DNA of 64,000 bases. It comes from Marsupella aquatica (lineage: Eukaryota > Plantae > Marchantiophyta). The DNA is taken from positions 13,022,238 to 13,086,237 of the forward strand of contig OZ316892.1 of NCBI GenBank assembly GCA_973895155.1. Direction: 5' to 3'. Below are positions 12 through 30,300 of the stretch, piece by piece. A program made the position numbers and the translations under genes. Position 1 is the stretch's first letter. Every line of letters starts with the position of its first letter. Under the pieces are notes generated by a model. It worked only from the letters and a program-made list of their open reading frames with translations, did no database searches and was not told the DNA's origin.

Positions 12-3000
12 TTGACCATCGAGGAGGAGAACTATCTCTCCTGGACACTAGACGTCAAAGCTAACCTAATAGCTAAAGACATATACGAAACGATCATAAC
101 CGATCAGGGCACAACAACCCAACAGAAGGCGAGAGCCTTGGTGTTCATAAGACACCACCTCGTAGAACCACTAAAGCTACAATACCTTAACGAGGAAAAT
201 CCCCAAAACCTTTGGGATTAACTCAAGGAAAGATATGACCACATTAAGACCATACACCTGCCTAGAGCCCGCCACGACTGGGCTAACCTTCGCGTCCAAG
301 ACCATACATCTATAGTTAACTATAACAATGAGCTATTCCGCATCACATCCCAGTTGGCCCTGTGCGGCCAACCAGTCACCGACGAAGAACAAATAGAAAA
401 GACAGTATCAACCTTCCACTTAGGGAACATCATACTCTCGGCACAATATAGAAACATGAAGTTCACAAAATACTCTAAACTTATAGCTCACATGTTACTA
501 GCCGAGAGGCATCAGGAGTTACTATTGAAGAACTCCAAGATGCGACCCCCGGGAACCGTGCCAACACCCTCAACCACCAAGACAAACTTTGGAATGCCTT
601 CCAGTAGCAGAGGAGGCCAACGGGGCGGGTTCAGCCGCAACGGTAGACGACAGTTCAGAGGCGGAAGATCAACCTACCTTAGGGGGAGGGGCAAAGGCCA
701 CGGAGCTGAAGAAAGCCGCGGATGAGGAAGATCAAGCTTCAACTACACCCGTGGAGGATCGGAAAGACCAGGAAGACCAGCCCAACGGAGTAGTTCATCC
801 CAAAAATACTCAGGAAGACCCATCGTGGAGTGCTTCCAATGCGGCACCAAGGGCCACCCACAGAAATTGTGCCGCACACCGGCACATCTAGCAGAATTAT
901 ACCAGCAGAGTAGAAATAATAGAACTCAGGAGGTACATCATGGCACTTTTCTAGAGCAAGACAAACACCTAGAAAACTACACCCATGACGGGACTATCCC
1001 TGAGACACATATGATTACACATTAGCAAGATCCCTTACCTTTAGACAACATTAGATAGCGGCACGGCCCACACTACATTAAAGTGCAGGGACTATTTCAC
1101 TCACGTTACTCCCTCCCACAAAAACATGACTACTATCATGGGGAGTAACCAAATAGAAGAAGGTAACGAACCCGTCACAATCACGTTACCTCAGGGCACT
1201 ACTATCTATATTAACTCCGCTATATACGCATCTAATGCCACGAGAAACTTGATTAGTTTCAAGGACATTAGAGATAATGGATTCCATATCCACACTAGCA
1301 CAGATAAAAACCATGAAGTAATTCATATCTTAAATAATACTTCCGATGGAAAGCAAATAAAAGAAACACTTTTTGCGTATCCGTTGGGTTTCTATGTCAC
1401 ACAATTGAATGTTTTTCATTCCACTACGCATGAGATGTCACTATATGACCTTTGGCATACCAGGCTTGACCACCCTGGCATGACCATGTTTCAAAAGATG
1501 AAAAGAGTAACCCAAGGAATACCACAAAACGCACGCCCAACGAACCATAATCAGTCCTGCATGGCATGTTCTCAAGGAAAGTTAATCGTTAGACCCTCTA
1601 TCCCCAAGACAATCCACGAAATGCCCAGATTCTTGGAACGAGTGCATGCATATGTACGTGGCCCTATTGAACCACCAAGCGGACCATCTCAATTTTTCCT
1701 AGTCATTATTGCCGCATCCTCAAAATGGTCGCAAGTTTTGTTGCTTTCCACGTGAAACATGGTTTTTCCACAACTTTTAGCACACGTCCTTAAGCTAAAA
1801 GCTCAATTCCCTGAAAACCCTATCAAGACAATTAGGGTTGATAATGCAGGTGAATTCACTTCGAAAACATTCGAAGACTTCTGCATGGCTACAGGGATAG
1901 ACACTCAATACCCTGTACCTCACGTCCATTTCCAAAATGACATCGCTGAATCTGTCATTAAGAGAATACAGATGATAGCAAGACCCATGCTTATACAGAC
2001 ACAGTTACCCACAAGTGCTTGGGGTCACGCTATACTACATGCAACAGCTTTACTTAAATATCGCCCATCGGCATATAACGACCAAACTCCACACCACCTA
2101 GCCTTTGGAGTAGATCCTGACTTATCACATGTCAGAACTTTTGGCTGCCAAGTACTAGTCCCTATAATGGGACCCAAACGTACTAAAATGGGACCTCAAA
2201 GACAAAGGCATATATGTTGGTTTTGAGTCACCATCCATAATTAGGTACTTAGAACCATCAACTGTCGATGTCTTTCAAGCGAGGTTCCCTCACTACCATT
2301 TTTATGAGAATGTTTTCCCCAAACTATTCAAAGGGAAACCACAATTTGAACGACCTTGTAACCTAAAATTATGATGGCGGACTCAGTCCACTATTTGGAA
2401 CGATCCACGCACACGACAATGCGAAGAAGAAATCCGTAGGATATTACAACTAACAAAGACGGTGGAGAAAACGCCAGACACATTCACAGATATTCGCAGG
2501 TGATGAGATCACATATCCCTGTTGCAAATGCTCTTGCACGTCTACAAGAATCCACACAACTGACCACGGACTAACCACCAAGAGCAAAACATGGACGTCC
2601 TTTGGGATCTAAAGATACTCAACCAAGACAAAGAAAACAACAACAACAATATCACCTGTGATACCAGAAGTGGTATCCACACCAAGTCCTGGGGAAATCC
2701 CAGAAAATGAAAAAATCTCAATTCACTACATGAATACTGGGACCATATGGAATAGAAATAATATCCCCATGGACGACAACTTTGCTTACCACATTTCCCA
2801 AAATATCACAAATACACAACCTGACCCTAAAACAATCAATGAGGCACAGAAAAGCCTGAATTGGTCAGAATGGGAAAAGGCAATTAACTCAGAATTGGAT
2901 TTACTAATTAAACGCCAACTGTTTGGACCTATTGTCCCAGCACCACAAGATACCCACTCAGCGGATTATAAGTGACATTCGTGAAAAAGAGAAACACACA

Positions 3001-4464
3001 AGGCCAAGTTGCAAGATATAAAGCACGCATTGTCATGAAAGAATACACACAAATACCTGGGCCTGACTTTGACTTGACATATGCACCAGTGATGGATGCA
3101 ATGACCTATCGATACCTAGTTGGATTTTCCCTAGGTCATCGACTAAAAATGCATCAAATGGATGTTGTAACAACATATTTATATGGATTATTGGATACTA
3201 CGATATACATGAAAGCACCCCAGAACTAATAAAGAGACAAACATACCATATTCAGGGGGATCATAAGACAAAGCAAAACCCATCCACATCCACATCTCTA
3301 CCTTATACCACAAAAAGACCCCAGGAAGGGAAAACGGGGCAAGGTGGACCTATAGTCCATCAAACACCATGGAGTGAACCTATTGTCCTTCCTAAGAGCG
3401 GACCTATTGTTCCTCCAATACATAAATCCATGCCTCTGGCCAATGATGGATATGGTGTCCAGATCATTAGATCTTTATATGGACTCAAGCAAAGCGAAAG
3501 AATATGGTATCAGAGATTTAGAGATGAAATGCTGAATATGGGTTTTACTAATGACAATATTGCTCCTTGTTTATTCATTAAAAAACATGATGAGGAATTT
3601 TTAATAATTGCCATCTATGTAGATGATATTAAACTATTTGGACACCTAAACTTATTACAACACACCATTGAAATACTAAATCGTGTATTTGAGATGAAAG
3701 ACTTAGGCCAAACCCACTACTGTTTGGGCCTACAGTTCGAACACCTACCTGATGGTATACTTTTACACCAAAGCACTTACACTACAAAAATCCTCAAACA
3801 ATTCAACATGGACAAGGCACATCCTCTAACTTCTCCTATGGAAGTACGATCTCTAGACAGAGACAAGGATGCATTCAGGAAGAGAAACAAAAACGAACCA
3901 CTACTCGGTCCTGAAAAACCATACATATCAGCAATAGGAGCACTCATGTTTCTAGCCAACCAGACACGACCAGACATTTCCTTTGCAGTAAACCTACTAG
4001 CCAGACATGTATAGTGCACAACCCACCATACGCCACTGGAATGGCATAAAAAGAATAATGCGTTACCTTCAAGGAACTATTGATATGGGACTATATTTCC
4101 CTAATAACACTAATAAGACCTTAACAGGCTACGCGGACGCTGGATATTTATCAGACCCAGTCGACGCTAAATCACAGACTGGTTATGTATTTCTATATGG
4201 TACTACAACCATTTCTTGGAAAAACACTAAACAAACACTAACATTCACTTCATCTAACCACGCCGAGATTATTGCATTATACGAAGCCAGCAGAGAGTGT
4301 ATTTGGCTAAGAAGAGTAACCGACCATATTAATACAAATTGCGGCTTACCAGCACTAACCGAACCTACCAGCACTAACCAAACCTTTTGAGCAGGTCTCG
4401 AAAGGATTCATCAAAGGAGACCGCATCAAGCATATCGCACCAAAATTCTTCTTCACCCACGAAC
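12..4464 (+). pseudogene. copia gag-pol polyprotein pseudogene (many stops and frameshifts)
   Basis: ORF fragments 12-221, 354-725, 825-1025, 1126-1755, 1759-2226, 2658-3229, 3430-4014 and 4007-4390 are collinear pieces of one polyprotein. Confidence 0.93.
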
Positions 4465-4520
4465 GGGCCCGACCTCTGTGACAGGAAATAGGAAACAGTA
4501 ATGATCATAACAGGAAAAAG
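4465..4520 (+). repeat. Left degenerate TIR with ACAGGAAA/ACAGTAA subrepeats
   Basis: Matches the reverse complement of 16040-16098 from about position 10 (CTC..TGACAGGAAA..CATAACAG.AAAA). Confidence 0.8.
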
Positions 4521-4744
4521 AGTGGAACAAAATAGGAGAATTGGTACTATCATCCACAAAACACGGCACAATTCTCTACAAAACCAATGAGGTCAATTTC
4601 AACATGAAGTCCAATATGATGGGAAAAACAACAATTGTCGGACGACACGTTTACTAGCGCCAAGCACTACCCAAACGTTTGTTACCGTTACAAAACATCA
4701 TTGACTAAATACCCGTTCAACGTCTACTAGAATGGTCAGAATTC

Positions 4745-7700
4745 CTAAAAACCATGTGTATTCTTCATTCCTAAGATGTACTGGAGTTCACCAATAGTAA
4801 GAATTGGTTGGCTTGGTAATACCGAATCCAATGGATCCAGCTTAAAGACCATTTTGTAAACCCAGTACAAATGCTTACAAGGCATGAAAGGTCTTCCTCG
4901 AGAATGCCGGCGAAAGAAATCCTCACAAGAGCAGCATGGGAATATGAAAATCTACACCCAGTAAGTGTTTGCCATCCTCAAATGAGCGTGTGTTTGGATG
5001 CGGAATCGTTTCCCATAAGAGTTCCCTGAGGAGACGTCCAATTCTGTGATGAGAGTCATCGTTTCCTTAGCAGCAGATTCAACCCTTCTATGATATTCCT
5101 GAGTAAGATTTGATCTGGGGTTCATTGGGGGGCCGTTCCTAGTTTGAGAATGGATGTTGATTTGTGCCATATTGATCTTCTCAGGAAAAACATCAACATT
5201 GATTCTCAAATCAAAAGGAGTAGGGCTGGAGGCCATGCTTTGGTCTCGTGAGAGGATTACAACACCCTGTTCTTCAAGGAAACTTATCTCCAAGTTTGAC
5301 AGATTTGTTCCTTTCAGTATCGGCAAGGACATTGGATAAGGAGGCAGGTTTGCTATACCTCGACGTGGGTGACTCTTCCAACAATTTCCGTTGGGGCAAA
5401 ACCACACAAACTTTGCATGAGGTTCTCCTCTGAATAGGCGCTCGGGGGGGGTCACTTCCACGGAAGTGACACATCACGTGCGACGAAGTATAGGCCCATT
5501 TAAATGGGTGTGGCGGAAGACTTCCAAAGTTTGGTGGAAGAACACATAGGGCATGTTTTATTGATTGGTCGACTTTAAAGAACACATGGGCCTATTTAAT
5601 TGCAAAAAATACTTTCTATAAAGTTTTTAGGGGTTTTTTAATAGAAAATGACAAAATTTTAAGAAAGAAAGGGCTTTGCAAAAAAAAAAATTTCACTTTA
5701 AAGTTAGGGGGGTCAAACCCTAAAACGTTGCACGCGATGTATGACCCTCCATATAGTGACCCCCCCGAGAATAGGCGATGTCCTTTGACAACAACTCCGA
5801 TGACACCAGCATTGGAAGGATATCCAACCTTCTTAATCCGATTTCAACACTCATCACGATCGCATCTCCCTGACAATGTCCCGTTACACTGTGGGCCGGG
5901 CCCAAGTCTTGAAATTCGACGAAGATGCCAAGAACCGGGATCAACGTCCATCTCCAAAAGCGACATGTCAGGGACGACTGGATTTTGGTTAAAAGAGACT
6001 TATGGTAATATTGAAGATGCTCCACCTCGACCAGAAGGAGGTGCATCCTGCATGTCACCCGGGTCTTCTTCACTCCCAGTCAAATCGATCGGTGTTTCAG
6101 GAGTACTAAGTGGAATATGAGAAAACTGAGTAGAGTTCAGATTTCTGCGTTTCAAACCCCGTGTATTTGGTGTTGTTATCAAAATTGTGTCATGACGATG
6201 GGAGTCTTGGGCCGAGACATTCCCTGTCGTTGGACCTTTTCTTTTGATAGATTTGGTTACAAAATCACCGTTCAATGGAGAACTCCTCTCCAAATCGAAT
6301 TCCGCCGCATTAGCTAGTAGAAAATTAGAAGCCTCTTCGAACAATCGAGGGGACCCAGCCTGATTTGCAGAACGGAAAGCTAGTTCAAAAACCGTAGGAC
6401 TTGTACCTCTATGTAACCCATCACGGTAGGCAATATAGGCGGCAATTTGGGAGATTGCTCGATTGTGCTCAGTTTTGCACCCCTCAAATAAACCTACAGT
6501 TTTCTTCCCTTGCCAAGCTTTCATGATACCATGAATTGCCTCAGATCCTGTGCAATTGGGAATCATCCCTCCTTCTTGTGCACTTTTGCTCTGCAGGACG
6601 GCGTGGGTTGGTCAAATCTCGAATATTACTTTGGAAGACGTGATGATATTATCCATCAATACTTACAAATTAAAAGTAGCGCCGGGCGCTGTCAAAAAGG
6701 ATAAGAGAATTAAGCAAAATAGAGTCTTAATAGTAGCGCTCGGCGCTAGTTTAGAAGTATATGAGATATTGAAAAATGAAAAGGCCATGTCAATGTCATA
6801 CTCACAAGTCTGATAAAATTTCCCCACTGTCGCCATCTTACAACCCACCAAGAGATCCATCCTTGCAGCATCCAAAGCTTTCCAGGAACGCAATTTCCGG
6901 ATCTCCACCATAAATCAATCTCTCTAGAGATTCTATAGGCTTCAACAAAAGTTGATGCATTTCTGAGCTTATCCCAGAGGGTTCGATGCTCTGCACGTTT
7001 GTCTTCCAACACTCCTTCGATGGAATGGCGATGCAAAGATTGGTAAAAATGAAAAGCGTCTGATCTCTCCTTCTCTAGATTTGGATGGCCCCCAAAGAAA
7101 ATTTCTCACCGCAAGCCATCCCGCATGAGCATTGTCAACCATGAATCCGTGAATTTGAACATCATGTAACCCATTTTATGAAGCGACCTCAATCATCAAT
7201 CTCCAAGCTTTCTCAAGAGATTCAGTGTCCTCCGCTTTCAGCTCGCACGTAAATATTGTACATAACGCTTGATAGTTGTGGTCATAGACATGGGCACTGA
7301 AAGTGCTCCATTCTTTAGACATTCGATGCATGACATCAAAACTCACCCATGCTCCTTCAAGTGGCCCACCTTTTTTCATTTGTCGAAGTAGATCGACTCC
7401 AGATCCATGACCTTTGATTGTCATTTTGAAAATATGAGCACGGTCCTCCTTACAGCCTTGCCTTTGAACAAATGGAAACCTCACATTCTTCTGCATTCGA
7501 ACCAGATATTTAAGATCTCCACGACCAGCCTGATCTTTCCGGACGCTCTTAAACAAGGCAGAGAATTTCTGTGGAGTGGAAACAAGCATAAGTGACTGCC
7601 AAATCTCAGTCTCTTCCATCTTCGAAATGTCATGAACAGATTCATCTAGTGCATCCTTCAAAGTTCCAGTGACTGCATTTTTTACAACACAAGGCGCGAA

Positions 7701-8843
7701 AGAAGGATTCTTCAAGTGCTCTTTTCGAATCTCCTCGACCGCTATTTTCTCTGAACTTCTAGACCAAATCTTTTGACATGGATGATTATGTACACCCATG
7801 TGGATTGCGAGGCTTGACATATGTTGCACTGTCACCGAATCAAGCATGACTTGCGGGTACATGTAGAACATTTTTGCATGGCAAGAGTCCAGACAAAATG
7901 GGAGCTGCAGACAATAACGACAAACAATCCCTCCTACATCAATCAACTTTCCTGGACAATGTTGACCTCCTAACTTAGGGGTCCCTTCCCAAGATGAACA
8001 ATTCCTACCATTGGTTATGATATAAAACTCGCATGAATTGTTCCGACATTCTAGTGACCCGCTACAACTAACCTTCCCAAACTCCCACATCTTCTTAGGT
8101 AAGACATTGGCTGAAGTGGGGAAAATTCTAGTCCATAGATAGCAATCCTTTGACCGGTCCATGTTAAGGAGACGCTTTCCTTTTGAACCAACACAATCAA
8201 CAGGTGGAAGCTCAAATATGACATTGCCATTATAACTTCTGGAAAGCAATTCCACTTGCTCGTGCATGAAAACCTCCGATTTAACAAAGCGAGAAATCTC
8301 ACTTTGTCCAGATGATTTCAAAAGTGCATCTAACGCGCTTCGCCTATAGACGATAGTAACAGGCGGAGCTAAAAGAAGTGTATCAGATCCACTAATTGTT
8401 TTGTTCAATCCTGGAAAAACAAGAGGAACCCGTTCCTTTGATGAGCTCCCCTGATGTATTGGAACTGATTCTTCTCTCTTAATGTTTCCAACATTCATCA
8501 AAAAAGGAGATCCAAGGAATGAGTCGTCGCCTTCAGATGTGAGATTGATGACTTCCCTCGGTGCAATTACCTTCTCTAATTTAACACGAACATCATCTTT
8601 TCCTTTGAGGTATAGAGAGTAATCAACACCAATATGCAACTCCCAAAATTTCTCTCCTTGACTGTAATGGAAATGAGCTGTACAACCAGCAAATGTTCCT
8701 AAATTATCAATATCTTTCCTTCGCACATCAAATCTTGCGAAAAGATAATTCTCACTAACGCATTGAGTACCTGGTTGATTGGTCACAGGTACGGTAATCA
8801 CCTCACCTATCGCCGGACAACTTACTCTAATTACATGCTGCAT
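4745..8843 (-). pseudogene. MULE-like transposase pseudogene: GCM/WRKY-like Zn domain, DDE core, Cys-rich region, SWIM finger
   Basis: N-terminal CSGSLEC..C..CRYC..HMGVHNHP. Putative catalytic residues in FDVMHR, FMVDNA (~7140) and NCTGSEAIH, with a CxxH-equivalent SDAFH. GT-AG intron 6805-6591 joins NFIRL|SKSAQ in frame. C-terminal CSCEDF..PCKHLYWV SWIM at ~4860-4935. Stops at 7176, 6000 and 4952, frameshifts, and a MITE insertion. Confidence 0.82.
5441..5769. mobile_element. 329-bp MITE inserted in the transposase exon
   Basis: TIR CTCGGGGGGG(G)TCACT...AGTGACCCCCCCGAG and 8-bp TSD AATAGGCG (5433-5440, 5770-5777). Excision restores GVVVKGHRLF|RGEPHAKFVWFCP. Confidence 0.92.
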
Positions 8844-9881
8844 TGCGGAATATCATCGACCACAATGGTAAAATGAGAGTGTCGTGATAGTTTTAGTTTC
8901 TTATTTCACCGCTTCTAAGAAACTTCAACAAAGAAACCACCATATGACAATTTGAATTCCAATTTCATTACCGTTGATGCAACGGAAAAGTGACCAAAGA
9001 ATGGCGGCGGATGACCATTGGAAGCAAAATGTTTCCATTAGTTTAACGGCATCTTCAGCAATGGATATTAGTAGCGCCAAGCGCTAGCAAAAATTTCTTT
9101 TTTCATGCCACACAATAGGTGGAGATGAACGCAAAAATACGACAAGATGAGAGATATATTTACCCACAACATTGATAGCACTTGGCGCTATTATTAATAA
9201 TACATATTCATGTGTCCAAAAAGTGAAGAACTTTACGACCATTGTTGTATTTAGGGAATGAAATGGCATTTCAGAAATGATTTAATAATAGCATCGGGCG
9301 CTATTATGTTCTGGGCTTATTTTTATGGTAAGGGACCTTAATATCTCCCAGCGTGATTATGGAAATGTATGAAACTTAATGGTGATTTAGGTGTAATTTC
9401 TATAATAGCGTCGGGCGCTATTATACAGACTTGTCCGCTGTTGTGACCCAACGGATATTTATAACGATAACTTCATATCTTAGTGACTGTTTTATCCCTA
9501 AAGTGGCAAAGATTTAGAGACATCATTTAGATAATTTTGGTTCTGTTAATCATGACCGTTTAGAACATGTGACATGTGTCTCTTTCTTGTTGGTGTTGTC
9601 GCTCTTTTTGCTGTTTCTTTTCAGATCATGAAAAGTAAATATTTAAGTTGATCGACAATCTTTGATGGAAAGATTGTCGATCTTACATGTGAAAGGCCAA
9701 TTCAATATGTCCGATCATGTTTTGAGATTTGCTGTCCTCTCTGTCTTCCGGGAAAGAACGTGCTCCATGTTGTCTGTTTGCGACATGGAGCTCATCTATC
9801 CGGTCGCAGGATAACGTTGCAGACCTCTACGATTGGCTGAGAACATTCCCAACCTTACCGCCTTCTACTCTTTATCTAGAG

Positions 9882-12800
9882 ATGGACAATACTTCTCCCG
9901 GTAATTTTGAGACATCCGAGACTTCATTCTTTGGTTCTGTATACACTCGGGGAGTTACACGCTCAACTGCATCGCAGTCGCTTCGACATATTGGGCAGAC
10001 AGTTCCAAAGCAGAAACAAGGAGCCATGGAGAATTTCAGCAATTTTGTGATGGAGGACGGAAGCGAAGGGGCTCTGTCGATGGGTGATGTGATCGCAAAA
10101 CATGCGATGTCGTTTGAGACTGATTTCAGAGGAGAGCCTAAGGATCCCCCCCGTATACCGCTTTGTCGCTTAGTCAACATGGAAGTTGTTCAGACTCTGT
10201 AGAAGGAGAGCGCTTCGATCGAGAAGCTCAGAGATTCATTTTGGAGTTCTGGTTACAACTCCTCCATAGGGATGTGGTTCTATGTGCAACCCGCTGATTT
10301 TGAAGGGGTTATCCAATTCTGCACACTCAAAATTCGTGAGAGTTGGGATGCTATATGGGTTTCCCAGAATGAGAAATTTGAAGCGGACTGCGAAATGGAT
10401 CCCGATTTTCTTGTCTTCAAAGACAAGATGTTTTGTGTATTTGACGGGAATCATTGTCTCTATTCCTGGTTACAGATCACGGACGAAAACCCCAAAAATA
10501 TCAAGTACCATCCTCGTGTGCTTTGCACTGTATTCAAGGGAGATCGAGGCTCTCTCATCGAGATTGAGGCTGCAATGCACACAGTCAATCAGTAAGTTCC
10601 ATCATTTTCTTTCATTGAATGTCAAAAAGAATGAATATTTTTTTCAATGTTTGGCTAGCGCCTGGCGCTGATGATTTCCGTTTGGTTTCAGATTGGGACA
10701 AGCCGTGGTAGAACCGTCATGGATCTTGGATGCAGATCAAATCAATCAAATTCTGTCCCATGACCTTGATTATTATAAGGCAATCATTGACACAGGAAGC
10801 TTCAAACGATTCAAGGCGATTCAAGCGAAGACAAGGAAAGGCTCTTGGTATACCAAGAAGATGCCTTTGGAGGCTCTTGTTTACATCTTGTGTGAGAACA
10901 AGATCAAGTCATATTCTCTCCAGTTCAAAATGGACATGGCAACTGCAAACTCTCAAGGAAGGCCATGGTCAAAGGAGGAGGTCGCTAAGCGTCACGCAGC
11001 GATGATGAAGGAGGCCACAAAGGAATGGAGCGTGAAGACCTCAAAGATTACTCCTCTCCTAAGTCCTGAATTCAATAATTTTCTGTCAACTTGTGCAGAA
11101 ATGTACACTCTGACAGAAAAGAACAAGCGGGAATGGAAAGCAGAGTCCGTTGTTTGTACAATGGATCGTGCTCGACTCTTCATTGCTTTCTCCGCTTTGG
11201 ATCCGAAGTTGCGTTCTACTCTTCTTGTGGCACATTGCACACCTGAACTTCGAAAACAATTTTTCCATCCACCTAGTGTGAATGACGAACCTGTGAAGCA
11301 ATGGTGTCATACATGGCACATGTGGAGTTGGATAGAAGGAATTGCAATAGGGATGTTGCAGACTGCTCTCAGGGAGATAAGTAATCTGATCAGTTATCAG
11401 TCACTTTCATCAGTGTACCTGATATCAGCTGCCACCTCATCTTAGAGAGGCCGCCAAGTTGCGATGCGAGAGGAAAAAATGAAGAACAAAAAATCTTGAA
11501 TTTTTCTTCAAAATTTGAAGGAAAACCTCTCTTTTTTTCAAATTTTTTTTCGCCATGAGACATCCCTACCGTACGGACACCTATCTCGGCGAGCCCAGCC
11601 GAGATGGGAAAAAAAAAAATTCAAATTTTTTTGGGGGAAAATTTTTGGTTTTTTTTTTCCCACATTTTTTTGGATCCGTACGCCCCATCTCGGCGAGGCC
11701 AGCTGAGATGGGGAAAAAATCTTCAAATTTTTTTTTTTTCAGAATTTTTTTGGATTTTTTTTCGGTCCGTACGCCCATCTTGGCGAGGTCAGCCAAGATT
11801 GAATCAACCTCGGCTGCCCAACTAAGATGAGCGGAAGTTCGAAGGCCCCATCTCAACTCCTCAACTGAGATTCTAAAATTTTTGAGATAACTGATGATGT
11901 TGTGTACCCCCTCTCAGGCAAGTTGAATCAATCATGCCTCCCGAACGACTCGTGACAAGAGGAGTAGATACTTTTGATGGTTTGGTCCAGAGCATTTGTA
12001 ATGATTTCAGAATTTACGGAGATATTGTGAAGGCCAAGTTCTTCAACACAATGTGGGCTTCAAAGTATGGGGAGAAAGAAGATTTCACTACACGAAACCA
12101 GAAGCGGGCAAAGAGATATGTTTATCGGTTCTTCATGTCCATGGAGAGCGTTTTGCCTGAATACTTCTGGGCTTACCCTCCTGCATTCCAGAAGTGGTCT
12201 GTCATGGATGGGGATGCATTCAGCGAGGTTTACAGTATGTATCCGACAGATGGAACCAACCCTCCGCGTGACCTTTCTGAGTGGGAGAGAGAAAACTGTC
12301 CATGGTACCTCGATACTGATAAGTGGGATACACCTTTTGATGAATTTGAGAAAGACTCCTTTCTGAAATTGTCCAAATCTCTAGTTCCTCGCAAATTGCT
12401 GTCAGAAATGAAGGAAGGTTTAGTGGGAGATGTTGAAGCTTCAGCGGTTGAGCTTCAAAAAATTTGCGAGACAGAGGTCACACGTGTTGACCGAAGCCGA
12501 AAGCCACGCGCGAAAGTAAAAATGGATACAGGATTGAATAGCCCGTCGACACGATCTGGAAGAAAACGTAAGATGTTCAACTTATTGTTCTTCTGGTTTT
12601 TTTCATAGTTTTGGTTAGCGCCAAGCACTACTTTGAAATGTTAGATAGATACTCATAATTCTGTTCCAATTTATGTATACATTGGATGGCTAGCGCCAGG
12701 TGCTGGTATAGTTTCCTTTATTAATTTCTATTCATACTTTTTATAGGGGGAAGAAAATCAGAGGGAGAAGAAACGCAAGATGCAAAGACGACCATCACCC

Positions 12801-14188
12801 CAGAGCTCCGAAGCAAACACGGAGGCTGCTAACGCCTTGGAAGAACAAACTCCTCCAACCAATGCCAACATATCTCGTCCTGTTGATGCCACGAGCACAA
12901 GGAAAAAGAAGAAGAAGAACCACGATCTTGGTTCGATTGCGTCCACCGAGGTCCAACGAGAAGTTGGTCGATTCAATTCAAAGGTTAGCCGTCATAAGTT
13001 TGTTGAGTCCAGTGTTATGGAATTTTTTGAATCTGTGTTTACAAATGAGACCAAACCCGCATGGGTGATGACTGTTGAAAAGTGGGGGAAAGACTTAGTG
13101 GCACTTGGTCTTCGCGAGAAAGGCGTTGTAAGGGGAGGGAAGTTAAGAGCGTTTGGGGTAGATGCGGGGTTTGTGTATTTACCAACGGGGCTAAGACCTT
13201 CTTTGCTTCACCGGAAGTCGCCAAAGTGGAATGTCCCGGATCACCGAATTGTAGGTTCCTTTTTTCGGGCCATGGACCCATTTCTAGCCGATGATGGATT
13301 GTTAGCAGTTTGCACCTGGGGAGTACGACCAGATTTCCCAAGTTATTTCCGCAAGCCAAGAGTCCCAGAAGTTCCAGTGCCTGAAAACACTCAACGTTGT
13401 AATGGGCGTCCCAATGTACATGGCCAGAAGCGATTGTCAGGTAATTATCCTCATCTTTGATTATCTTTTTGGCTAGCGCTTGGCGCTAGTCATATATTCA
13501 ATTTCACGGTATTGAGTTTAGGGTTAAAGTCTTTATTTTTCGTCTGGTTTTTTGGTAGCGCCAGGCGCTACCCATGTCCCTTGTTATATATCTCATTTTT
13601 CTTGCTTACTTCACAGGTTTTCACCTTAAGACTTGACATCTTCAGTCGGGTTACATCGAAAGTCAGGGTTCCAAAGGATGTAAAGTTTAAGCCTTTGTCT
13701 GTAACTGAAGACCCTTCAATCACGAATCTCATTGGATTGCAAAGTCTCAAGAATGATCCTTCTCCTGAAGGTGCATTTGCTGGGAATGCTCGTCTGCCTG
13801 TCGGCTTCATGCAGTCTGTCCTTGAGTTAATTACGCATCCGGGAGATATTGTTATGGATTGGACGGTTGGTTCTGGGAGCACATTTGTTGCGGGTGACTT
13901 CTGTGGCCGTTTCATTCTTGGGATTGAAAATCGCAAGGAATTTGTGTCCATTGCTGAAAAGACGTTCAATGATCTTCTTCTCCCCAAAGAAGTGAGTGAG
14001 GCTGGTCCGAGCAAAGACCAGGGGAAAAAGTTAAGGACAAAGTTTGTTCTGTTGTGAATTTTGATTCCGAAGAAGAAGAAGCCGATGTTGGTGATGTGGA
14101 TGGTGGTGAAGATGTAGATAATGTAGAAGAGAAGAAGGAAGAGGGGAATGCAGAAGGAGAAACGGATGATTCAGATTCCTCAGAGTAA
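9882..14188 (+). pseudogene. Spliced accessory gene of the transposon: ParB/Srx-like N-terminal domain, N4C/N6A (beta-class-like) DNA methyltransferase-like domain, acidic tail; decayed
   Basis: Exons ~9882-10591, 10692-12567 (split by insertion 11374-11910), 12747-13440 and 13617-~14188, possibly with a further exon ~14290-14584; all introns GT-AG. Motifs: IPLCRLV..KMFCVFDGNHCLYSW (ParB-like DGxHR) and RLPVGFMQSVLELITHPGDIVMDWTVGSGSTFVAGDFCGRFILGIE (like the C-terminal SAM-binding block of N6_N4_Mtase). Stop at 10200 and frameshifts near 12747, 13320 and 14050. Confidence 0.75.
11374..11910. mobile_element. 537-bp non-autonomous element inserted in exon 2 of the accessory gene
   Basis: 8-bp TSD CTCTCAGG (11366-11373, 11911-11918) and imperfect TIRs sharing ATCAGTTATC. 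Three internal hairpin repeats CCATCTCGGCGAGGCCAGCYGAGATGG are separated by A/T tracts. Excision restores LQTALR|QVESIMPPERL in frame. Confidence 0.9.
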
Positions 14189-14595
14189 TGCCCGTAAGCT
14201 CCTTCACATTACATTACTATTTGTTTTCTTTGTTTTGTTTCAAACACATCAATTAAAGCCACGTACTTAGTGTTCTAACCAACTCGCAGGTCCGAGTGGA
14301 ATCTTCGCGAGAGGTTTCACCTACGAAGGAAATTTTCAAGGAAGGTTCTCATTACCCCGGAGAAACCATTTGTATTGCCTTCCTACGCCGAGTATGCCGC
14401 TCGCAAAGAAGAGAGCAGGAGAACCCTGACTTGGGAGCATAAAGGCTTGCAATTGAGACGAGGTTCGGATCAGAAGTTTATCCATCATCCTTTTGTCGAC
14501 GACATGGCACGGAATGAATTTGTAGACGATGAAGCAGAGTCTACAGATAGATCGGAGAGTAGTGGGTCAGAGTGTGCAGATTAGATTTGATTAGC

Positions 14596-14645
14596 TTAGA
14601 TTAGATTAGATTAGATTAGATTAGATTAGATTAGATTAGATTAGA
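14596..14645 (+). repeat. (TTAGA)10 microsatellite
   Basis: Read directly; lies just after the stop at 14584. Confidence 0.95.
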
Positions 14646-15071
14646 GTTTCACCGTTTGGTCAATTCCCCCCTCCAAAATAGTAGCGCCCGATGCTACTTA
14701 TTATTCATATGACGTGAAGCTGGATTAAGACAAGGTGGGCAATGTATGATGTTCCGTATATCCTTTTAGGAGGACAAATGTACTGAAATACTTAATTCAA
14801 CAGAAGTACCCGTACAAGTGTTTGTTTCCCTTCCGTAATGTCATTGCCTGTGGTACTCATTGATCTCAATGGACTGGTGTTTTCTCTGTATGCGTGATTG
14901 AAACGGAAACTTTTTCCCTTGCTCGAAATTGCATTGTTAGTCATTTCATTTAGACTCTCCCCTTTCGTCCCTCTCCTTTTGACAATTTGTAGGAGCTCTT
15001 GGAGGCCTTTGCCATTTACGCTTTTCGGTGTCAAGTCCTTTGAGAGACAAAAAGTCATTCGTGTAGTGACC

Positions 15072-15542
15072 ATGGACAAAGGGAAGCAGGTGAAACAAGA
15101 GAGGACTTCCCGCCTCACAAAGTTTGAGGGCAAAGCATCTGATGGTGATCTGTTTCCGAACTTCCCAATCGAAGATACTACTCACTCTGAGACATCGACT
15201 GAGCGGAATCGACTGTGGCTAGCCTCCGATGAGGGGATAAGTTTCCGATCAAAATCTATTCCTTCTACTCATTTATCGCCTCCCCGGTCTTTTCGAGAGC
15301 GTTTCTCTATTCACGATCCGGACCCTTCTGATCACTATGGGGTTGGAGGGACGCAATTTTTTAGGGACATTCAACAGTGGACTGGGCGAGTTGGATTCTC
15401 TTATTCGAACATATCAAATTGCAAGCTTAGGAGTCGCCTTCCAGGGCCGCATTTTTTTGCTGAGCGGGAGGATGGATTTCATCAAGATGACGATCGGTTC
15501 AATGCAGGACTCGATGATGAGTGTGGATCGTTGACATCCTGA
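15072..15542 (+). other. Possible third small gene of the transposon (unknown function, possibly frameshifted)
   Basis: MDKGKQVKQ... ORF with an overlapping alternative frame 15337-15534, flanked by palindromes at 14682 and 15579. No recognisable motif. Confidence 0.3.
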
Positions 15543-16039
15543 TCTTTAGGAAGTCTTTTTGCACACTCTCGTGATAGATAGTGCCCGGCGCTATCGCTAT
15601 TAAGAACAAAGGAGATAGGATTTTGTTTGTTCGGGATGTTCAGTTTGTAGGATACAGCTTTTTAGTTGTTAAGTCGATTCACTGTTCGCAACATCTCTAC
15701 ATATTCTGGAGTTTAAAGTTGTAAGAGGTATTGTCACCTTGCATAGCTTTTATTCCACAATGACACTCACTAGTCGGATTTAGGGATTTAGTGGCAAAAT
15801 GACACTCACTAGTCGGATTGTATGTCAATGACAATGAGTGTCTTGGGGATTAGTTTGTTCTTACCCGACCTCCTAGATGTTTTGGATTCTGTGACACCTT
15901 TTTTTGGAGTAGCGCCAGGCGCTACTAATACATGGAGCCATTTTTCTCAGGCTTTACTTTTGAACTTCGTTTTATAACTGTTCTCTCAAACCCTATTTTT
16001 ATTGATGGATGGCGAATGTTCAGAGTATAACCCCGTCTT

Positions 16040-16098
16040 CTTTTACTGTTATGTTTTCCTGTTTCCTGTTACTGTTTCCTGTCATGGAGAAAACCTCC
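16040..16098 (-). repeat. Right degenerate TIR
   Basis: TTTCCTGT/TTACTGT subrepeats ending ...TTCCTGTCATGGAGAAAACCTCC immediately before the TSD. Confidence 0.8.
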
Positions 16099-16248
16099 CA
16101 CGAACACCAAGGAGACACCATTCAAGTGAAGACAATTGCGAGCAAAGACAACCATGCAGATTTATTCACAAAAGCCTTGACTCTAGCACTACATACTATT
16201 CATTGTCAAGGCATAGGCTTAGGCAAACTATCAAAACTCAAAGATTAA
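16099..16248 (+). pseudogene. C-terminal end of the copia RNase H, resuming after the insertion
   Basis: Reads HEHQGDTIQVKTIASKDNHADLFTKAL...KLKD*. Removing 4465-16105 joins ...KFFFTHE|HQGDT... in frame. Confidence 0.93.
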
Positions 16249-23222: not shown

Positions 23223-25700
23223 TTATCTTCCAAGTTGCTGAGGGGGCAGACCAAACAATGCATACAAATCTTTCACCAAGATTTGAGATGCCATCCTAAC
23301 CCCCTCATAAAACTTGCAAGCAATGAATACATGATATTCATTCTCTATACTAGAGCTATCACATAGTTGACAAACCCTCTTTTTCCTGTCAATATCCTTC
23401 CATCTCCCTTGTTCTACTTCAAGGTGGTGTGAGCTTAGTCTATACTGAGCAATAAGTTGTCTAAGTTGTACTGAGATAGTGCTAGATAAGTATTCTTGTT
23501 CTCGATATTTCTTCATGGGGTTCACATCTCTCATGTAGTATTGCTGCCGTGGGCTAGGTTCATGCCAAAGTTTGTGCAAAGCCTTTTGCTCAAGTTTTGC
23601 TCTTAGCTTGGTTGGGTGTGTTGGCCATTCATGTTCAGGAAAATCCCAAGCATGGGCCCACCTGCACACATCTGCATACCACCCTTTAGCTGAAGATGAG
23701 CGCAAGGCATGAAAAGGAAATCTGTTTTCCTCCAACTCTCTTACATGCATGATGTATTTGAGTGTGTGGAAGAGTGCCTCCACCTCCAAGGAAACAAGCC
23801 TGCCTCTGCAAGTGTAAGTGCATATGGGGTTTGTGACTTGATCCCAAGCTCCATCTCAAGAAATAGCTTTTGCAGCCCCTCAATCTGTTGCCACCCAGAT
23901 TTAGACACACCTGCTCCCCAAATTGGTGCTCTATAAAGAATGACTGGTTTCACCAAAGCTCCAAAGAGATGTTTCCTTAACCTCCAAGTGTGTAGACCAG
24001 CTCTTTTGCATTTGTTCATGAATGCATAAAAAGCTCTGTACCCATTGGCAGCCCTAGATTTTACACATGAGGCCCAACTCAAGTTTTGAGAGAACTCCAC
24101 CCCAAGGTATTTGTAGGTCCTCACAAATTCCACCAGATTCCCTTGGAAGTAGAGCTCTGGATTTTGTCGTGTGCCAATGCCCAAACACTTGGTCTTCTTG
24201 AGGTTGACTACCATCCCTGTTGCTTGACAAAACTCCTCCAAGGCATTGAGATGTCTTTGCAAAGCTTCTTGAGCATGAGCAAGTAGGACCACATCATCTG
24301 CAAATATAAGAAGTTGGAGGACAAACCTACCCAATTGAGTGCCCACTCCACCATGCTCCTCCAAAATGTTGTGTAGCTGATCAATGAAGATGCCAAAGAG
24401 AGTTGGTGAGAGAGGACAACCTTGGATCATCCCAAGAGTGCTCCAGATTTCTTCAGAGGTTTCCTTTGAAAGTTTGATGCGCACTTCTTGGTACAATTTA
24501 GAAACAGCTAACCTGAGCTCTTCAGGCACTTCCAACTCCACCATCCTATCCCAAAGCTTGGATCGGGAAACTTTGTCAAAGGCCTTGGAGAAGTCCACAA
24601 ACAAGCAAAATAATGGTTTATGTGGAGATTTGGCCTTTTCACACAACACCCTCAAGTAGAGAATGTGATCCATAGTGCTTAATTCTCTCCTAAAACCTGC
24701 TTGTGAAGGTGCCCTTTTCATCTCACTCTCCAACCAAGAGCTTAATCTGGCTTCAAGTAGTCCTCCCAAAACTTTAGCAAAAGTATTGCCTACCATGATG
24801 GTTCTGTAGTTGTGCACATCGTCCTTGTTGCCTGCCTTGAAGATAGGCACCACTCTTCTAGTCATCCAAGCTTTAGGTAAACCTAAAGCCATTGCTTGAT
24901 TCAGCTCATGCACCAAGTTTGTTAGTAAAGAGGGTCCTCCCCACAAAAGAAGCTCCAAGTTCAGGCCCAACAGATCTTTAGCTTTCCCATGTTGCATGTG
25001 GGAAAGATGCACCTTCACCTCCCTCTCTATAAACTGAATGGTGTCCCCAAGGGGCAAAGGCATGCCACTAGCATCTGGAAAGAAATACAAGGATGTGACA
25101 TAGGTTACCAGGTAGAAATACAAGGATGTGACATAGGTTACCAGGTCCTGGTGATCCAAGGGGGGAGTAGTCTTGCCTGATTGCATTCTCTCCCAAAAAC
25201 GTTTTGGATGTTTGATGAACTCCTCACATAGTGATTGTTGATGACTCTTCAAGAAGCACCTCTTCTTGTGTTTGATGAAATTCTTGTACATAGTGAATGC
25301 CAAAAGTCTCTTTTCCCCTGAATGTGATCTTGCTTGCATCCTCGCTCTAGCACAATCCTCGTCAAACCAAGCCTTCATGTTTTGCTTTCTAGGGGGTTTG
25401 GTGGAGAAAATAGAGGCTGCTGCTTGTGCTATGACTTCTGAGAGCTCAATCTGATCATCCAGGGTATGGAGAAGATGTTCAAAGTTGGCTTTGAAGATGA
25501 TTTCTCTATCAGGGTCTAGAAACAGAGGTTTGAGTATTGACTTTCTATGCACTTTGTTTGGGATTGTGATCAGGTCAAGATGGAACAACAAAGGCAAATG
25601 TGAAGACTCTGGTTGTTGATCAAGTATTTGAAAATCAACCACTCTAGTGACAGAGGTAGGTGACCAATGCCTTCGCCTTACCACACATGTGCTGACGAAC
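23223..25700 (-). mobile_element. Non-LTR retrotransposon (LINE) ORF2: RT plus C-terminal Cys/His domain; 5'-truncated or degenerate, one frameshift
   Basis: ORF 23741-25684 has PIFKAG..NYRTI, QAGFR, FVDFSKAFD, QGCPLSPTLF, FADD and YKYLG. ORF 23223-23789 has RLSSHHLEVEQGRW..CQLC..ENEYHVFIAC. A 33-bp tandem duplication sits at 25081-25146. Confidence 0.93.
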
Positions 25701-27354
25701 CCTTGTGTGCCAGAAGTGGAAGAGTGGCAAATGTGGCAAAGGTGAGAATAGTAGGTGGAATTTTGGATACAAAAATACTCTGGTGCAAACGGCTTCCCTT
25801 TACAGTGGCAGAAGGTGCTGCATGATCGTTTGCGTTGTTAACATAAGTACAAGGCATCAAGACCTCCTTAAAAACAGTAACCGAGAGAGCAATTTCTGTC
25901 AACTCATTAAATGGACATCATGTATGTTTACATCAAAGTGAAGAGAGAATGTTGTCCAGTGCAAAACTGTGTTGGGAGTTTTCAGGACCAAAGAAAAAAC
26001 AGCAGACCTGTTTGCTCAAGTTATTACAGGTAGGTAGCAATGTATGCCATCTAAGAGGTATAACATCATCACACTTTCTTTTTGTTCGAAGTGTTTAAGG
26101 TGTTCCAATTCTAATTCAAGAATTGTAAGGTAGTCTCCCTAGTGTTACTATTGCGATATTTGCTGACCTGGGTAAGAATGGAAGCACCCTCTGAAATACA
26201 CCACGATCATTCGATATAGGAATCTAAATTTTTTAACCAAACCATTTCATGCAGGTATGTTCTAGCAAACTGGGCCTGTCGAGATTTGAGACCTATCGTC
26301 CAGCCCACTCAAGTGTCCGCTAGAGGATTTCGGTGCTTTAGTCATGGCTCTTTGCAGGACAGTATGGTGGCATAGGATTACTCAAGTCGTCTACCCAGTA
26401 GTCCGCAAGAACTTGGAGCATCGGTCCGGCCTAAATAAACCAATATGGAATGTTCGACAAAACTCAGATGGACTCGGCGATGAGCGCTGACGACTAATTA
26501 TATACGTAACGATATCTTTATTATCTTCTTGCACGAATGATAGTGCGAACAGTTGATCCGAAAGAGGGAGGGGGCATCTGAGCCTCGATTACTGCTTCCC
26601 ACAAAAAACTTCATGAACCAGTGGTACTTGGGAACATTAGTTGGGAACACACCACTAAATGGCCATATCATTCAACACAGCAATGATGGTCCCCAATATC
26701 CAACATGCAAATACTAAGACGACGAATTCACAGAAATAAACTCTTTGTTCAAGTGTGGAACTTTATATACATTCACTTGGTTTACAGTACACCACATCGG
26801 AACAATCCAATGGTAAGGAGTCATGAATTTTGTCCTCTACCACTAGAGCCTTAGAATGAAGTGAAAATGATAAAAGCTACAAAGTGGAATAATTTATTTT
26901 GCGCCAGGAGAAATCCATCCACTTGCATGATGGGAGCGCCCCCATCCAAGGCTACCAACAAGATAAGCATCCAGAAGATTCCATGCCCAGCCAAAATACT
27001 GATTCCAACTTTAAAGCCTAACAGTAAAGCAGCAGACCAAGCCAAAAATATTGATTCCAACTTAGAAGCCCTACCAGTCCTGAATCTGGACTTCAAATGG
27101 TTTCATGGCGAGCCCAACTCTAGTCAAAACCCAGAGTTCCCAGCCCCATCCGCCCCAACTAGAGGAGAGAGTGTCTAAAGGTTACGGAAAGAGAGCTTAC
27201 TGAAAGATTCAAGTATCCGACAGAACACACTTAGCTCTTCTAGTGAACCCCCACCACCAAAGCCCTATTCTTTCCCAAAATTTACAAAAGTAAATGTGCC
27301 TCCATCAAACTCGTGCGTTCCTTCATGGTACTAAAGGGAAAAAAACCTCCCCGA

Positions 27355-30300
27355 TCAGCAATAGAACATCACCTTCTTCACATTTTCCTTTAGGGCGGGA
27401 AGCGGCCGCACAGATCCCCCACCAGGGGCCCTAGTGCTCCTAGCACCGGAACTCCCAGTTGTGACAGTTCTACCTGTTGGTCCAATCCCGCTGGGCAATG
27501 ACCCACTGTCTGAAGCTTCCGGCTCCATGTAAAACCTTGCCCGGAAGGCAGCCAAATGCGCATAGTAGGCAGGTGGTACTGAGAGCAAAATATAGGGTCA
27601 GGACAACCGACAAGACTGGTGTGACATCTGTTAAACAGTAGTGAGTTTCGAAGACAAATATAAAAGGCAGATATAACTCATAAAATACAAAGAACATTGT
27701 TTACGATTGTTACTTACCAATAGAAACCGATCTGGTACATCGTGCATACCTGTGAAAGGGGAAAGTTGGTTAGGACTTAAAAGATACCCTACCCTAGTCC
27801 ACAATACGCAGTGCAACACTAAACGCTTTCCACAATACACATCTATATGCAATGCTCATATCCATAAAGAGGAGATTTGGCTACTGTACCCAATTTTCTT
27901 CAGAGGCAATGCAGCAAAGTTTTGGTTACTTACGTGTAACAAAGATTATTGGTTAAGGACTGCAACTCATCCGCCTTGAAATTATTTTCATCCCACAGCA
28001 CATGATAATGCGCTGGCCTGCTGGTTCCCTGCTCACAGCGAAAGAGAGTAAATTACCAGTGAACTAGATGGTAGTTCTAAGTTTGGAGCGAAAAAGACGT
28101 AAACAAGACAACCGAAGGACCAATAATCGTTCCACACACTTCCCTATGAACACGTAACGCTCACCTGTATACCAGCATGGCTGCAAAGGTAGAAATCGAA
28201 CTCGGTAGGATGGCAGATTTTTGAATCAACCACCGTACCTACAAAAATGCAGCCCCAGACTTAGGGTCAACTATATGGCCTAGAGCACTAGATCATCCAC
28301 GGACGTGCCCGAATCAGGTACACCATTGCTTCTCTATCCTTGTCTCTTCATCCAAGAACTAGTAGAAACAGAAGTGTGGAGTTTAGCGTAAATAAACTAA
28401 CCGGGTAAAATGTTGCCACTCTTATCGGTCATGTTGCGATCATTGTGGTTACTTGCAAAGAGGCGAGTGTGATGCCGTTTTTGCACCACAACAAAAGTCA
28501 CTGGGGGCTGATAATTTGCTTCGAGTGATGCACATGCCTGTTCAAGCATAAAATTCATTAGAAGTCCCCTCAGCTGTATATTTTGAATTCAGACATCCAC
28601 AAGACTATAAAGAGCATCTAACCTTCCGAATAGCATCTAGCTCGTGCAGTAACACTTGATAGAACTGCCCCTCGCTGACACCATCCCTGAAAAAACGACA
28701 ATATAGGCAAATGGGTCAATTGTCCAAGACTTCTTAAGAAAGTACTCAGTACGAGGGGTTAACCCTCACCCGGGGTACCTGACTGGGCACTTCTCTCATA
28801 ATAATGAAACCGCAGTCCACAAACGGCTCCATTCACTGCTTCTTTGTCATCCTCAGGAGGACTCAATGCTTCCACTACCTACACAAAAAGCTTCGATATT
28901 CACAAAGAGTACCGTACGTATCAGAGAACATTACCTGTAAAAGATAATCCTCTGGGGCTTCTGTGAGGTCGCTTTCTTAAATGACATGAGAAGCTCCCTG
29001 GACGTTAAACAGATGAACGCTATAAGCCGTAAAATTTGCGAACGATTTGCGAACGACTTACATCATGAATAAGGTAAAGTGCTCAACACAATTCAAACGA
29101 TCAATCAGAACAAGTTTAAATGAAAGTCAATAGAAAACTAAAAAGCTGAGGAAAGTAGAGGACGAACTTGATCATCCCCCCGGACTGAGGGCCACGCTGA
29201 GGATCAACCCAAGACTTGAATAAATCTTGGATCAATTCTTGCCGATGTGCTTGAGCGCACACCAGTCCAGCATACTTCGTCACTTCTGGCCAATCTTGCG
29301 AAGCAACGACCTGTTGTACGTGTCAGTATTCTCTTTTCGTTTCCTTCAACATGTATGCGGACAACGACAAATTGGTCAGAGCAGACGCTCAGGCGAGGAA
29401 ACAACACGGTTAACACTCTTGATGATCTCGGGTAAAATTTCACTTACTGCAGCAATCGATGGACTGCTATCTTCCCCAGGATGAGGATGTGTGACATCCG
29501 CGCCAAAAATGATGGTAGGCACATCGCTAACAAGAGGAATCTTTCTTGTTAGCGCGTCGACAAGTACTGTGTTCCTACCACCAACCTGAGGACAACACGA
29601 TTTGAAGCGGTAAGAGACCCCAACAACTTCATTATGACGAGGCAAACTATTATCTCAGCTAACCATCATCATCACTCCAAATCATTTAAAGGTCCAAACA
29701 AAACAAAACCCATGAAGTGTAGCGAAGAAAAAATCTGACTTACTTTCACATTGATTTTAAGTGCAACATTGGCAAGGTACTGCTTGCTCATTTTGTACAC
29801 GTGCTTCGTGAGGCAACACTGAGAAACCACACCCAAGTCCGTCTCACATATTCTTTTCAGATCACCTGGAACATGTATTTGCCAACATATGAGGAAGTAT
29901 GAATGCACGAGTCACCGGCCTGAGAGAAGGTCACGAGGAGGAAGAATGAGCCAAAATCTTTCCATAGACAATTTGTTTAGACGCACCGTATAGGGCACCG
30001 TTATTGTCAGGTAGTATAACAACAAGAAGCTCCAGATCCTTCCCCTTGGTTCGGATTTGTGCCTCTCTAAACACTTGCTTCAGGGCACGTTCAACTTGAT
30101 CTTGCCGGGCCATATGGATCGGCATAACGGGCTCTTGCGTGAAGTTCTGTTCAGAATAAACCAGAGATTTAACAATTGGTTCATCAACGAGAAGAAACAT
30201 AATTATTACTCACATGCCACCTTTCAGAAGTCAGAACCGAGCAAGAAACACATCAAGACGTTACAAGAAGACTGCTCGGGGAAAACATCTAGGACCGGTC

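Follow-up and report, generated by a model that had tools for sequence, protein, structure and literature searches.

Non-coding palindromes in a Mutator-like transposon of the liverwort Marsupella aquatica as candidate loading sites for a ParB-like accessory protein

Introduction

How large transposons escape methylation by their hosts is known in detail for only a few Arabidopsis systems, and for the ParB-domain accessory genes of algal transposons there is so far no tested site or function. Here we describe a 64,000 nt stretch of the genome of the liverwort Marsupella aquatica (contig OZ316892.1, positions 13,022,238 to 13,086,237; 'the window' hereafter, in which all coordinates are given). 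It contains a Mutator-like DNA transposon (4465-16096), in which transposase and accessory gene lie on opposite strands, and fifteen short palindromes dispersed through the non-coding DNA of this element are considered as candidate binding sites for the accessory protein.

Several described systems share parts of this arrangement. In Arabidopsis, VANC21, the accessory protein of the Mutator-like element VANDAL21, binds short motifs in non-coding DNA (introns, intergenic and terminal regions) and causes the entire element to lose methylation (PMC5735166). The liverwort locus is alike in combining a Mutator-like element, an accessory protein and short family-specific motifs in non-coding DNA; however, the VANC21 motifs are 9 bp long, non-palindromic and multiplied by tandem repeats, and the accessible part of that report makes no mention of ParB or methyltransferase domains. 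In the brown alga Ectocarpus, the large DNA transposon Sola1-1_Ec32 also carries an accessory gene opposite the strand of the transposase, encoding ParB-like and N4/N6 methyltransferase domains; compared by architecture, its product of 1104 aa stands beside the roughly 1,200 codons of the liverwort gene. Self-binding and self-modification are proposed by the authors, whose account, in its accessible part, treats the enzyme as active and names no binding site (PMC12477816). Whereas that element belongs to a brown alga and has a Sola transposase, the present one belongs to a land plant, has a Mutator-like transposase, and combines a lost catalytic motif with 15 candidate sites. In Bostrychia and other red algae, the PAG3 gene of Plavaka transposons encodes a ParB domain and adjoins inverted repeats to which its own product is proposed to bind, and ParB accessory genes of this type move between transposon superfamilies (bioRxiv 10.1101/2025.02.11.637652). 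There, according to the available text of the preprint, ParB is fused to a 2-oxoglutarate (2OG) oxygenase, and the repeats form tandem arrays beside the gene rather than dispersed single sites.

Bacterial elements offer a further parallel, in that they encode ParB-type proteins with palindromic loading sites and a long-range effect on transcription. VirB, which recognises virS, is a ParB-like CTP clamp that counteracts silencing (PMC10770331), whilst the ParB clamp KorB exerts long-distance silencing from its palindromic operators, OB (PMC11790492). The KorB operator likewise has TAGC...GCTA arms, but these are separated by 1 bp, against 7 bp in the liverwort palindrome, and identity of the two sites was rejected on account of this spacing. 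VirB and KorB have a GERRxR-type motif and no methyltransferase domain; the liverwort protein instead has DGNHR, and among the scanned frames of the element there was no ATPase match that might represent a ParA partner. Beta-class N4C/N6A methyltransferases (CcrM, M.MboIIA and Marchantia MpDN4MT1) have in common with the accessory protein their fold and S-adenosylmethionine (SAM)-binding half, but not motif IV, which is absent here; MpDN4MT1, according to the part of its description available, keeps TSPPY (10.1101/2021.02.12.428880). The ParB-linked adenine methylases reported from chlorophytes and chytrids are, in the accessible part of that account, of the Dam type (PMC4738411), and PMC12730594 does not mention ParB.

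Transposon genes joining ParB to a methyltransferase, or ParB to inverted repeats, are hence already published for algae. The land-plant case, the pseudo-methyltransferase version and the dispersal of palindromes through introns were unreported in the literature searched, which leaves subscription journals mostly uncovered; what is new is this Mutator-like land-plant example, with its pseudo-enzyme, its intron-dispersed sites and a sister variant that enables a swap test.

Results

A sharply bounded set of palindromes

The window was scanned for TAGCGCC-N-GGCGCTA with up to 2 mismatches, with 100 dinucleotide shuffles as the null. Fifteen sites were found, against none in the shuffles, and these are the fifteen listed in the initial annotation, though just two (13556 and 15910) are exact, seven having one mismatch and six having two. 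No version with 3 mismatches exists anywhere in the 64 kb and all six versions with 4 mismatches lie outside the transposon, so the set is a real and sharply defined feature. As previously thought, the remaining 52 kb of host genes, introns and other repeats contains no copy at this threshold. The core AGCG-N5-CGCT occurs eight times in the window, each time at one of the 15 sites. The element thereby has a palindromic cis site in the size range of about 13-16 bp seen in ParB-parS systems.

All four bases are found at the centre (A6 G3 C3 T3), in keeping with the free centre base originally described. The flanks had been called unrelated, and their similarity does exceed the 99% null level in only one of 105 site pairs (12616/13556); however, two positions beyond the arms the base is invariably a purine 5' of the palindrome and a pyrimidine 3' of it (30 of 30 half-sites), against a purine fraction of 0.48 in the non-coding DNA. 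Therefore the motif is better described as 19 bp, RN-TAGCGCC-N-GGCGCTA-NY. A tandem-repeat search of the window found no array covering the sites, and with their flanks mostly dissimilar an origin by tandem duplication was rejected, as it had been on first inspection. The extra self-complementary flanks reported for about half of the copies exceed chance only at the first base (9/15, permutation p 0.014); flanks of 2, 3, 5 or 8 bases show no such excess (p 0.10-0.44 by the same approach).

From left to right, the sites comprise one past the transposase stop (4655-4669), two in the transposase intron (6677-6691 and 6734-6748), four between the divergently oriented genes (9072-9086, 9176-9190, 9289-9303 and 9406-9420), five in the first three introns of the accessory gene and three in the right arm. 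Intron 1 (10592-10691) has a single site (10656-10670), whilst introns 2 (12568-12746) and 3 (13441-13616) have two each (12616-12630 and 12691-12705; 13474-13488 and 13556-13570), just as initially annotated; a fourth GT-AG intron (14194-14289) has none. The right arm sites lie between the accessory gene and a third open frame (14682-14696), directly past that frame (15579-15593) and further towards the end of the element (15910-15924). Eight of the 15 are consequently non-intronic. Introns were called by GT-AG ends and frame continuity, those numbered 2 and 3 also by homology, and the resulting model leaves 29% of the element as non-coding DNA when nested insertions are excluded. None of the 15 sites falls in an exon (p about 9e-9), which bears out the avoidance of exons claimed at the outset. 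With nested insertions removed, neighbouring sites are 57 to 2,338 bp apart, and the outermost are 190 and 186 bp from the two ends of the element. This concentration of family-specific motifs in non-coding DNA, in 15 of 15 cases plus one sister variant, recalls the VANDAL/VANC system, but multiplication of the motifs as tandem repeats is not seen here.

A role as splice branch points was considered for the motif and rejected, as CTGAT is found near the acceptor only at site 10656 and most sites are not intronic. The exact motif is also present in 85 stretches of viral contigs, 79 with one site, six with two and none with more, and these occurrences were treated as chance; in two of them (L065 and L071) no ParB-like gene was seen by eye, an ordinary phage methyltransferase lying 1.1 kb from one.

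Decay of the sites

Together the 15 sites contain 19 mismatches, all of which are transitions: 16 are C>T or G>A, and three are A>G at the last base. The 16 are distributed as 7/66 in CG, 9/36 in CHG and 0/51 in CHH contexts (16/102 vs 0/51, p 0.001). Since the changes are restricted to CG and CHG, as would result from deamination of plant-type 5-methylcytosine, they are likely to be scars of methylation. Other copies of the family retain the consensus base, G, at 4666 in the first site, one of those with two mismatches, and at 12627 in site 12616. Taken with the restriction to CG and CHG, this suggests that the ancestral site was a near-perfect palindrome rich in methylatable cytosines, of which there are six or seven per site. 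Neither these methylation-type mismatches nor the C-terminal methyltransferase domain without a catalytic motif, described below, formed part of the initial annotation.

The accessory gene and its product

The accessory gene lies on the forward strand. Exon 1 (9882-10591), the start of which is uncertain and which has one in-frame stop, encodes a ParB/DUF3723-like domain. At a motif that reads DGNHC in the window, the majority of other copies in each of the four sequencing runs have C at 10455 and so DGNHR; this we take to be the arginine motif of the ParB/Srx type. In the ESM Atlas, exon 1 matches DUF3723 (score 0.95, 175 features in common) and, with a score of 0.92, a cluster in which ParB_N makes up 11%. 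On the strength of the motif and the language-model match, the N-terminus is predicted to be ParB-like. Exon 2 (10692-12567) has no family match and is split by a nested insertion. Exon 3 (12747-13440), which is frameshifted, encodes the first half of a beta-class methyltransferase domain, with YLPT at motif IV, and exon 4 (13617-14193) the SAM-binding half followed by an acidic tail; a probable exon 5 (14290-14584) is called from GT-AG ends and an open frame only.

The sole Pfam match of the accessory protein is that of exon 4 to N6_N4_Mtase (E 1e-9, above the cut-off). Among 1.84 billion representatives, 26 relatives of exon 3 were found at 30-63% identity; four short matches were excluded from the alignments (A1 and A4), and one repetitive sequence (P0018) was dropped as spurious. 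Of 20 proteins that were looked up, five named relatives come from another liverwort, Calypogeia fissa (CAM6082147.1, CAM6096077.1, CAM6096687.1, CAM6123651.1 and CAM6128600.1). A profile of the exon 3 relatives matched five enzymes of a phage collection over 147 columns (probability 71%, E 4e-5), such that the xLP(T/N) of the accessory family aligns with the DLPY motif IV of these enzymes. In all 25 rows that cover the motif (the 26th being exon 4, which lies outside it) it starts with Y, A, F, C or S, continues with L or F and then P, and ends in T, N, L, S or C; set against the pattern D/N/S-P/L-P-Y/F, neither the first nor the last residue type is kept in any row. The DWxxGxG-type SAM motif is still present. 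When the methyltransferase half-domain was modelled, the top Foldseek match was CcrM (E 3.5e-4). The aligned fold of protein P0016 is reliable for residues 1-155 only, and a wide fold search with it returned methyltransferases as well as unrelated folds at middling Z (best 8.8), whilst a single-sequence fold of protein P0009 was unusable, with a pLDDT of 34. Judged by sequence and modelled fold, exons 3 and 4 encode a beta-class N4/N6 methyltransferase domain whose catalytic residues are gone throughout the family, and established motif chemistry predicts that this domain is inactive.

No relative was found in GTDB genomes or viral contigs, a weak match of 29 aa (L001) being put down to chance. 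In word-based protein searches the longer proteins gave no match, and a single new short match came up, which is weak evidence of absence. A beta methyltransferase of a DLPY-like type, related to the accessory domain, is encoded at 1027-1851 of a stretch (L007) from the 620-kb record Mollyvirus Mo1-1, the taxonomy of which, tailed phages, is odd for a sequence of this size.

A sister family with its own palindrome

One of 25 candidate stretches, a metagenome contig of 1.2 kb (L002), encodes a relative with 39% identity over 104 residues. The palindrome of the window has no match in it within four mismatches. It has two palindromes of a TAGCAGCG-TTTTT-CGCTGCTA-like type, which lie at 127 and 369 and precede a splice acceptor, ag followed by GGGGAAGAA, that is identical to the one in the window, where the counterparts are sites 12616 and 12691. 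Common to the palindromes of both families is AGCG-N5-CGCT, which occurs twice in the contig and in none of 1000 shuffles; the spacer and flanks differ. Hence site and gene appear to travel together and to diverge, but as this is a single short locus without a transposase it does not decide which protein reads the site. The expectation that sister families would have different palindromes is matched by this variant with a common core, whilst their co-variation with the protein comes from the one contig only. The CCNGG at the centre of the window palindrome was also considered as a methylase target, and rejected, given that the motif of the enzyme is lost and the sister spacer is TTTTT.

The transposon and its surroundings

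The transposon is 11,632 bp long and is flanked by 9-bp target-site duplications, CCCACGAAC, on the left (4456-4464) and right (16097-16105), both on the forward strand. Copies were compared by matching contigs of four sequencing runs against the window; in two of these runs (X1 and X2), contigs pass directly from 4455 to 16097, with 9 letters in common at the joint, representing the empty site in other copies of the host sequence, presumably a Copia-type retroelement as read by eye from a motif. The duplication is within the 8-11 bp range of Mutator-like elements (MULEs), among which non-TIR MULEs have no long terminal inverted repeats (TIRs) (PMC6446971). Compatible with the latter, the element has no long TIRs, only short subterminal repeats: three copies of ACAG(G/T)AA at the left end (4481-4517, forward strand) and five, inverted relative to these, at the right (16042-16082, reverse strand). 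Eight of nine copies of this repeat are within 60 bp of an end, the remaining one being internal, and these end repeats (ACAGGAAA) are likely to be sites of the transposase.

The reverse-strand gene consists of exon 1 (6806-8843), which encodes a Cys/His-rich region and has one stop and one frameshift, the GT-AG intron with its two palindromes (6591-6805), and a 3' coding part (4745-6590) broken by frameshifts and a nested miniature inverted-repeat transposable element (MITE). By eye, and going by the MULE-type signature, we take exon 1 to hold the first two acidic residues and DxxH, and the 3' part the third acidic residue (E). A SWIM match near the end of the protein is below the Pfam cut-off (E 0.77), and matches in the ESM Atlas to MULE/ZSWIM RNase H-like families (0.80-0.88) are leads only. 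As the frames of the element gave no match to the Pfam MULE domain, the Mutator family label is probable rather than proven; the length of the duplication, the acidic residues with DxxH seen by eye, the weak SWIM match and the Atlas leads together make the gene a probable Mutator-type transposase.

This copy is dead, as its stops and frameshifts indicate. The family is multi-copy and diverged, with 1,755 to 4,682 contigs per run at 85-100% likeness, a figure that includes the nested repeats and is not a copy number. Two later insertions (337 and 545 bp including duplications) are missing from other copies. The first is the MITE (5441-5768), bounded by a 9-bp duplication, which contains none of the palindromic sites and for which 3/4 runs contain the joint of 5431 to 5769; it is a very abundant repeat with G-rich inverted ends. 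The second, of 537 bp (11374-11910) with an 8-bp duplication, likewise lacks the sites and is absent at the joint of 11365 to 11911 in 3/4 runs. It too is a more abundant repeat, of higher summed depth in 4/4 runs, and has a palindrome of its own, TCTYGGC-N7-GCYRAGA, in three spaced copies at 11584, 11688 and 11778; possibly, it is a non-autonomous element of another family with its own site array.

Beyond the accessory gene, at the end of which is an (AGATT)13.6 microsatellite (14578-14645), the third open frame (15072-15542, forward strand) encodes 156 aa without a Pfam match and has sites 14682 and 15579 on either side. Elsewhere in the window are a LINE reverse transcriptase (23744-25837), a probable Argonaute gene with a weak ArgoN match (27400-34200), an intronless uroporphyrinogen decarboxylase frame (51812-53101) and a ketoacyl synthase gene (58153-59853), none of which contains the palindrome, along with a 78-bp tandem repeat (61722-62315) and a degenerate AT-rich repeat cluster (49345-49747). 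No tRNA or Rfam family was matched within the window.

Discussion

The reading that we favour, at a confidence just short of even, is that the 15 palindromes are family-specific loading sites for the accessory protein and act against silencing. A dimer of this protein, with its ParB-like front end and catalytically dead methyltransferase back end, would bind the palindromes as double-stranded DNA and from there extend over the element, protecting it from silencing by the host, the dead fold serving as a dimerising or DNA-covering module and not as an enzyme. The symmetry of the site, its fixed 1-bp centre, the outer R..Y rule and the absence from exons all suggest a sequence that is read as duplex DNA, and it is quite probable, as far as sequence can indicate, that the accessory protein is the binder; if it is, then an anti-silencing effect by analogy with VANC21 seems only slightly less assured. 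The ParB-like domain beside palindromes suggests loading and sliding as a ParB clamp, in the manner of VirB and KorB, and in this way 15 sites could be enough to cover 11 kb. With six or seven methylatable cytosines per site, host methylation would be in competition with binding, so that the element as a whole would be switched on or off. The original proposal of a selected site for a dimeric protein, parS-like or VANC-motif-like, stands as a candidate: the placement and fixed spacing of the sites, the ParB-like gene, the sister palindrome and the separate end repeats speak for it, although the ParB domain is without a Pfam or fold match.

A number of observations weigh against this reading. 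Searches of Pfam, PHROGs, NCBIfam, PADLOC and PDB sequences found no ParB domain in the accessory protein, and no helix-turn-helix was identified in it, exon 2 having no family match in hidden Markov model (HMM) searches. Across family contigs of intron 3, the sites are only weakly less variable than the rest (2/30 against 27/146 positions, p 0.09). In one diverged copy, four bases are duplicated within site 13474, and site 13556 carries a C>G transversion. The co-variation of site and protein is drawn from one 1.2-kb contig that includes neither a transposase nor the ParB exon. The first site of this contig (118-156) has 17-bp arms with one mismatch and folds as a hairpin at -16.6 kcal/mol, and such palindromes may have originated, or been refreshed, by fold-back copying. 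Lastly, transposases can themselves bind clustered motifs and so activate their own elements, according to the available part of a recent preprint (bioRxiv 10.64898/2026.08.24.746577).

The alternative that survives best, though we regard it as unlikely, retains the accessory protein as the binder but assigns the sites to the mechanics of transposition or to self-limitation: clamps along the 11-kb element would compact it and pair its ends, or repress the divergent promoter in the way that KorB acts on plasmid RK2. An element without long TIRs, with sites evenly spread almost to both ends and four of them in the divergent promoter region, would suit such a function, and silencing at a distance from palindromic operators has a precedent in KorB (PMC11790492). 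It does not, however, account for sites that are methylatable and apparently scarred by methylation; furthermore, intronic and intergenic placement agrees with the targets of VANC21 (PMC5735166), and the algal ParB accessory genes, in the accessible descriptions, are fused to DNA- or chromatin-modifying domains (PMC12477816; bioRxiv 10.1101/2025.02.11.637652).

That the transposase binds the palindromes through its Cys/His-rich N-terminal region and so activates itself, with the accessory gene as unrelated cargo, is distinctly improbable. The ends of the element carry a separate, non-palindromic repeat, ACAG(G/T)AA, and a related palindrome adjoins the homologous accessory exon in the sister contig. 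The Arabidopsis AtMu1 transposase and Spm TnpA do activate cognate copies through clustered motifs (10.64898/2026.08.24.746577), but the motifs quoted for these and for VANC in the available texts are not palindromic, and ParB-domain genes accompany inverted repeats in unrelated transposase superfamilies (bioRxiv 10.1101/2025.02.11.637652).

Still less probable is that the palindromes are host transcription factor sites or neutral relics, either footprints of tiny insertions or remnants of an old tandem duplication. No duplications flank the sites, there is no tandem array, host genes, introns and other repeats in the remaining 52 kb are devoid of them, and a sister family has its own version; these points outweigh the flank similarity of sites 12616 and 13556 and the lack of significant conservation across copies. 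Least probable of all is a role as hairpins or cruciforms in single-stranded DNA or pre-mRNA, which the initial annotation had entertained: intact sites do fold at -8 to -9 kcal/mol, their first flanking base tends to pair and the first site of the sister contig is a long hairpin, but in the element extra flank pairing is slight, no site is changed on both sides of a pair and wobble-tolerated changes (11 on the forward strand, 8 on the reverse) are independent of gene direction, which argues against an RNA hairpin, whilst the 1-base centre and the unpaired type of the R..Y rule indicate sequence read-out and over half of the sites are outside introns.

If the palindromes are indeed loading sites for the accessory protein, a more ambitious model can be built on the same analogies, one that we consider rather unlikely as a whole. 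A bacterial-type ParB sliding clamp, run by eukaryotic transposons, would load with CTP at intron-hidden palindromes and slide over the whole element, its dead methyltransferase fold excluding host CG and CHG methylation; site and protein would co-diverge between families, as a portable lock-and-key anti-silencing module that has spread, in plants, algae and fungi alike, through superfamilies such as Mutator, hAT, Sola and Plavaka.

The evidence for a pseudo-enzyme argues against the published idea of self-methylation for the lineage of this liverwort element. The element also supplies a precise 19-bp candidate site, together with a naturally diverged sister site that has the same core, for a swap test. 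Should the protein prove to be a CTP clamp, this would be a case of a ParB clamp operating on eukaryotic chromatin and, if the reading is true, a possible tool for region-wide, sequence-directed epigenetic control.

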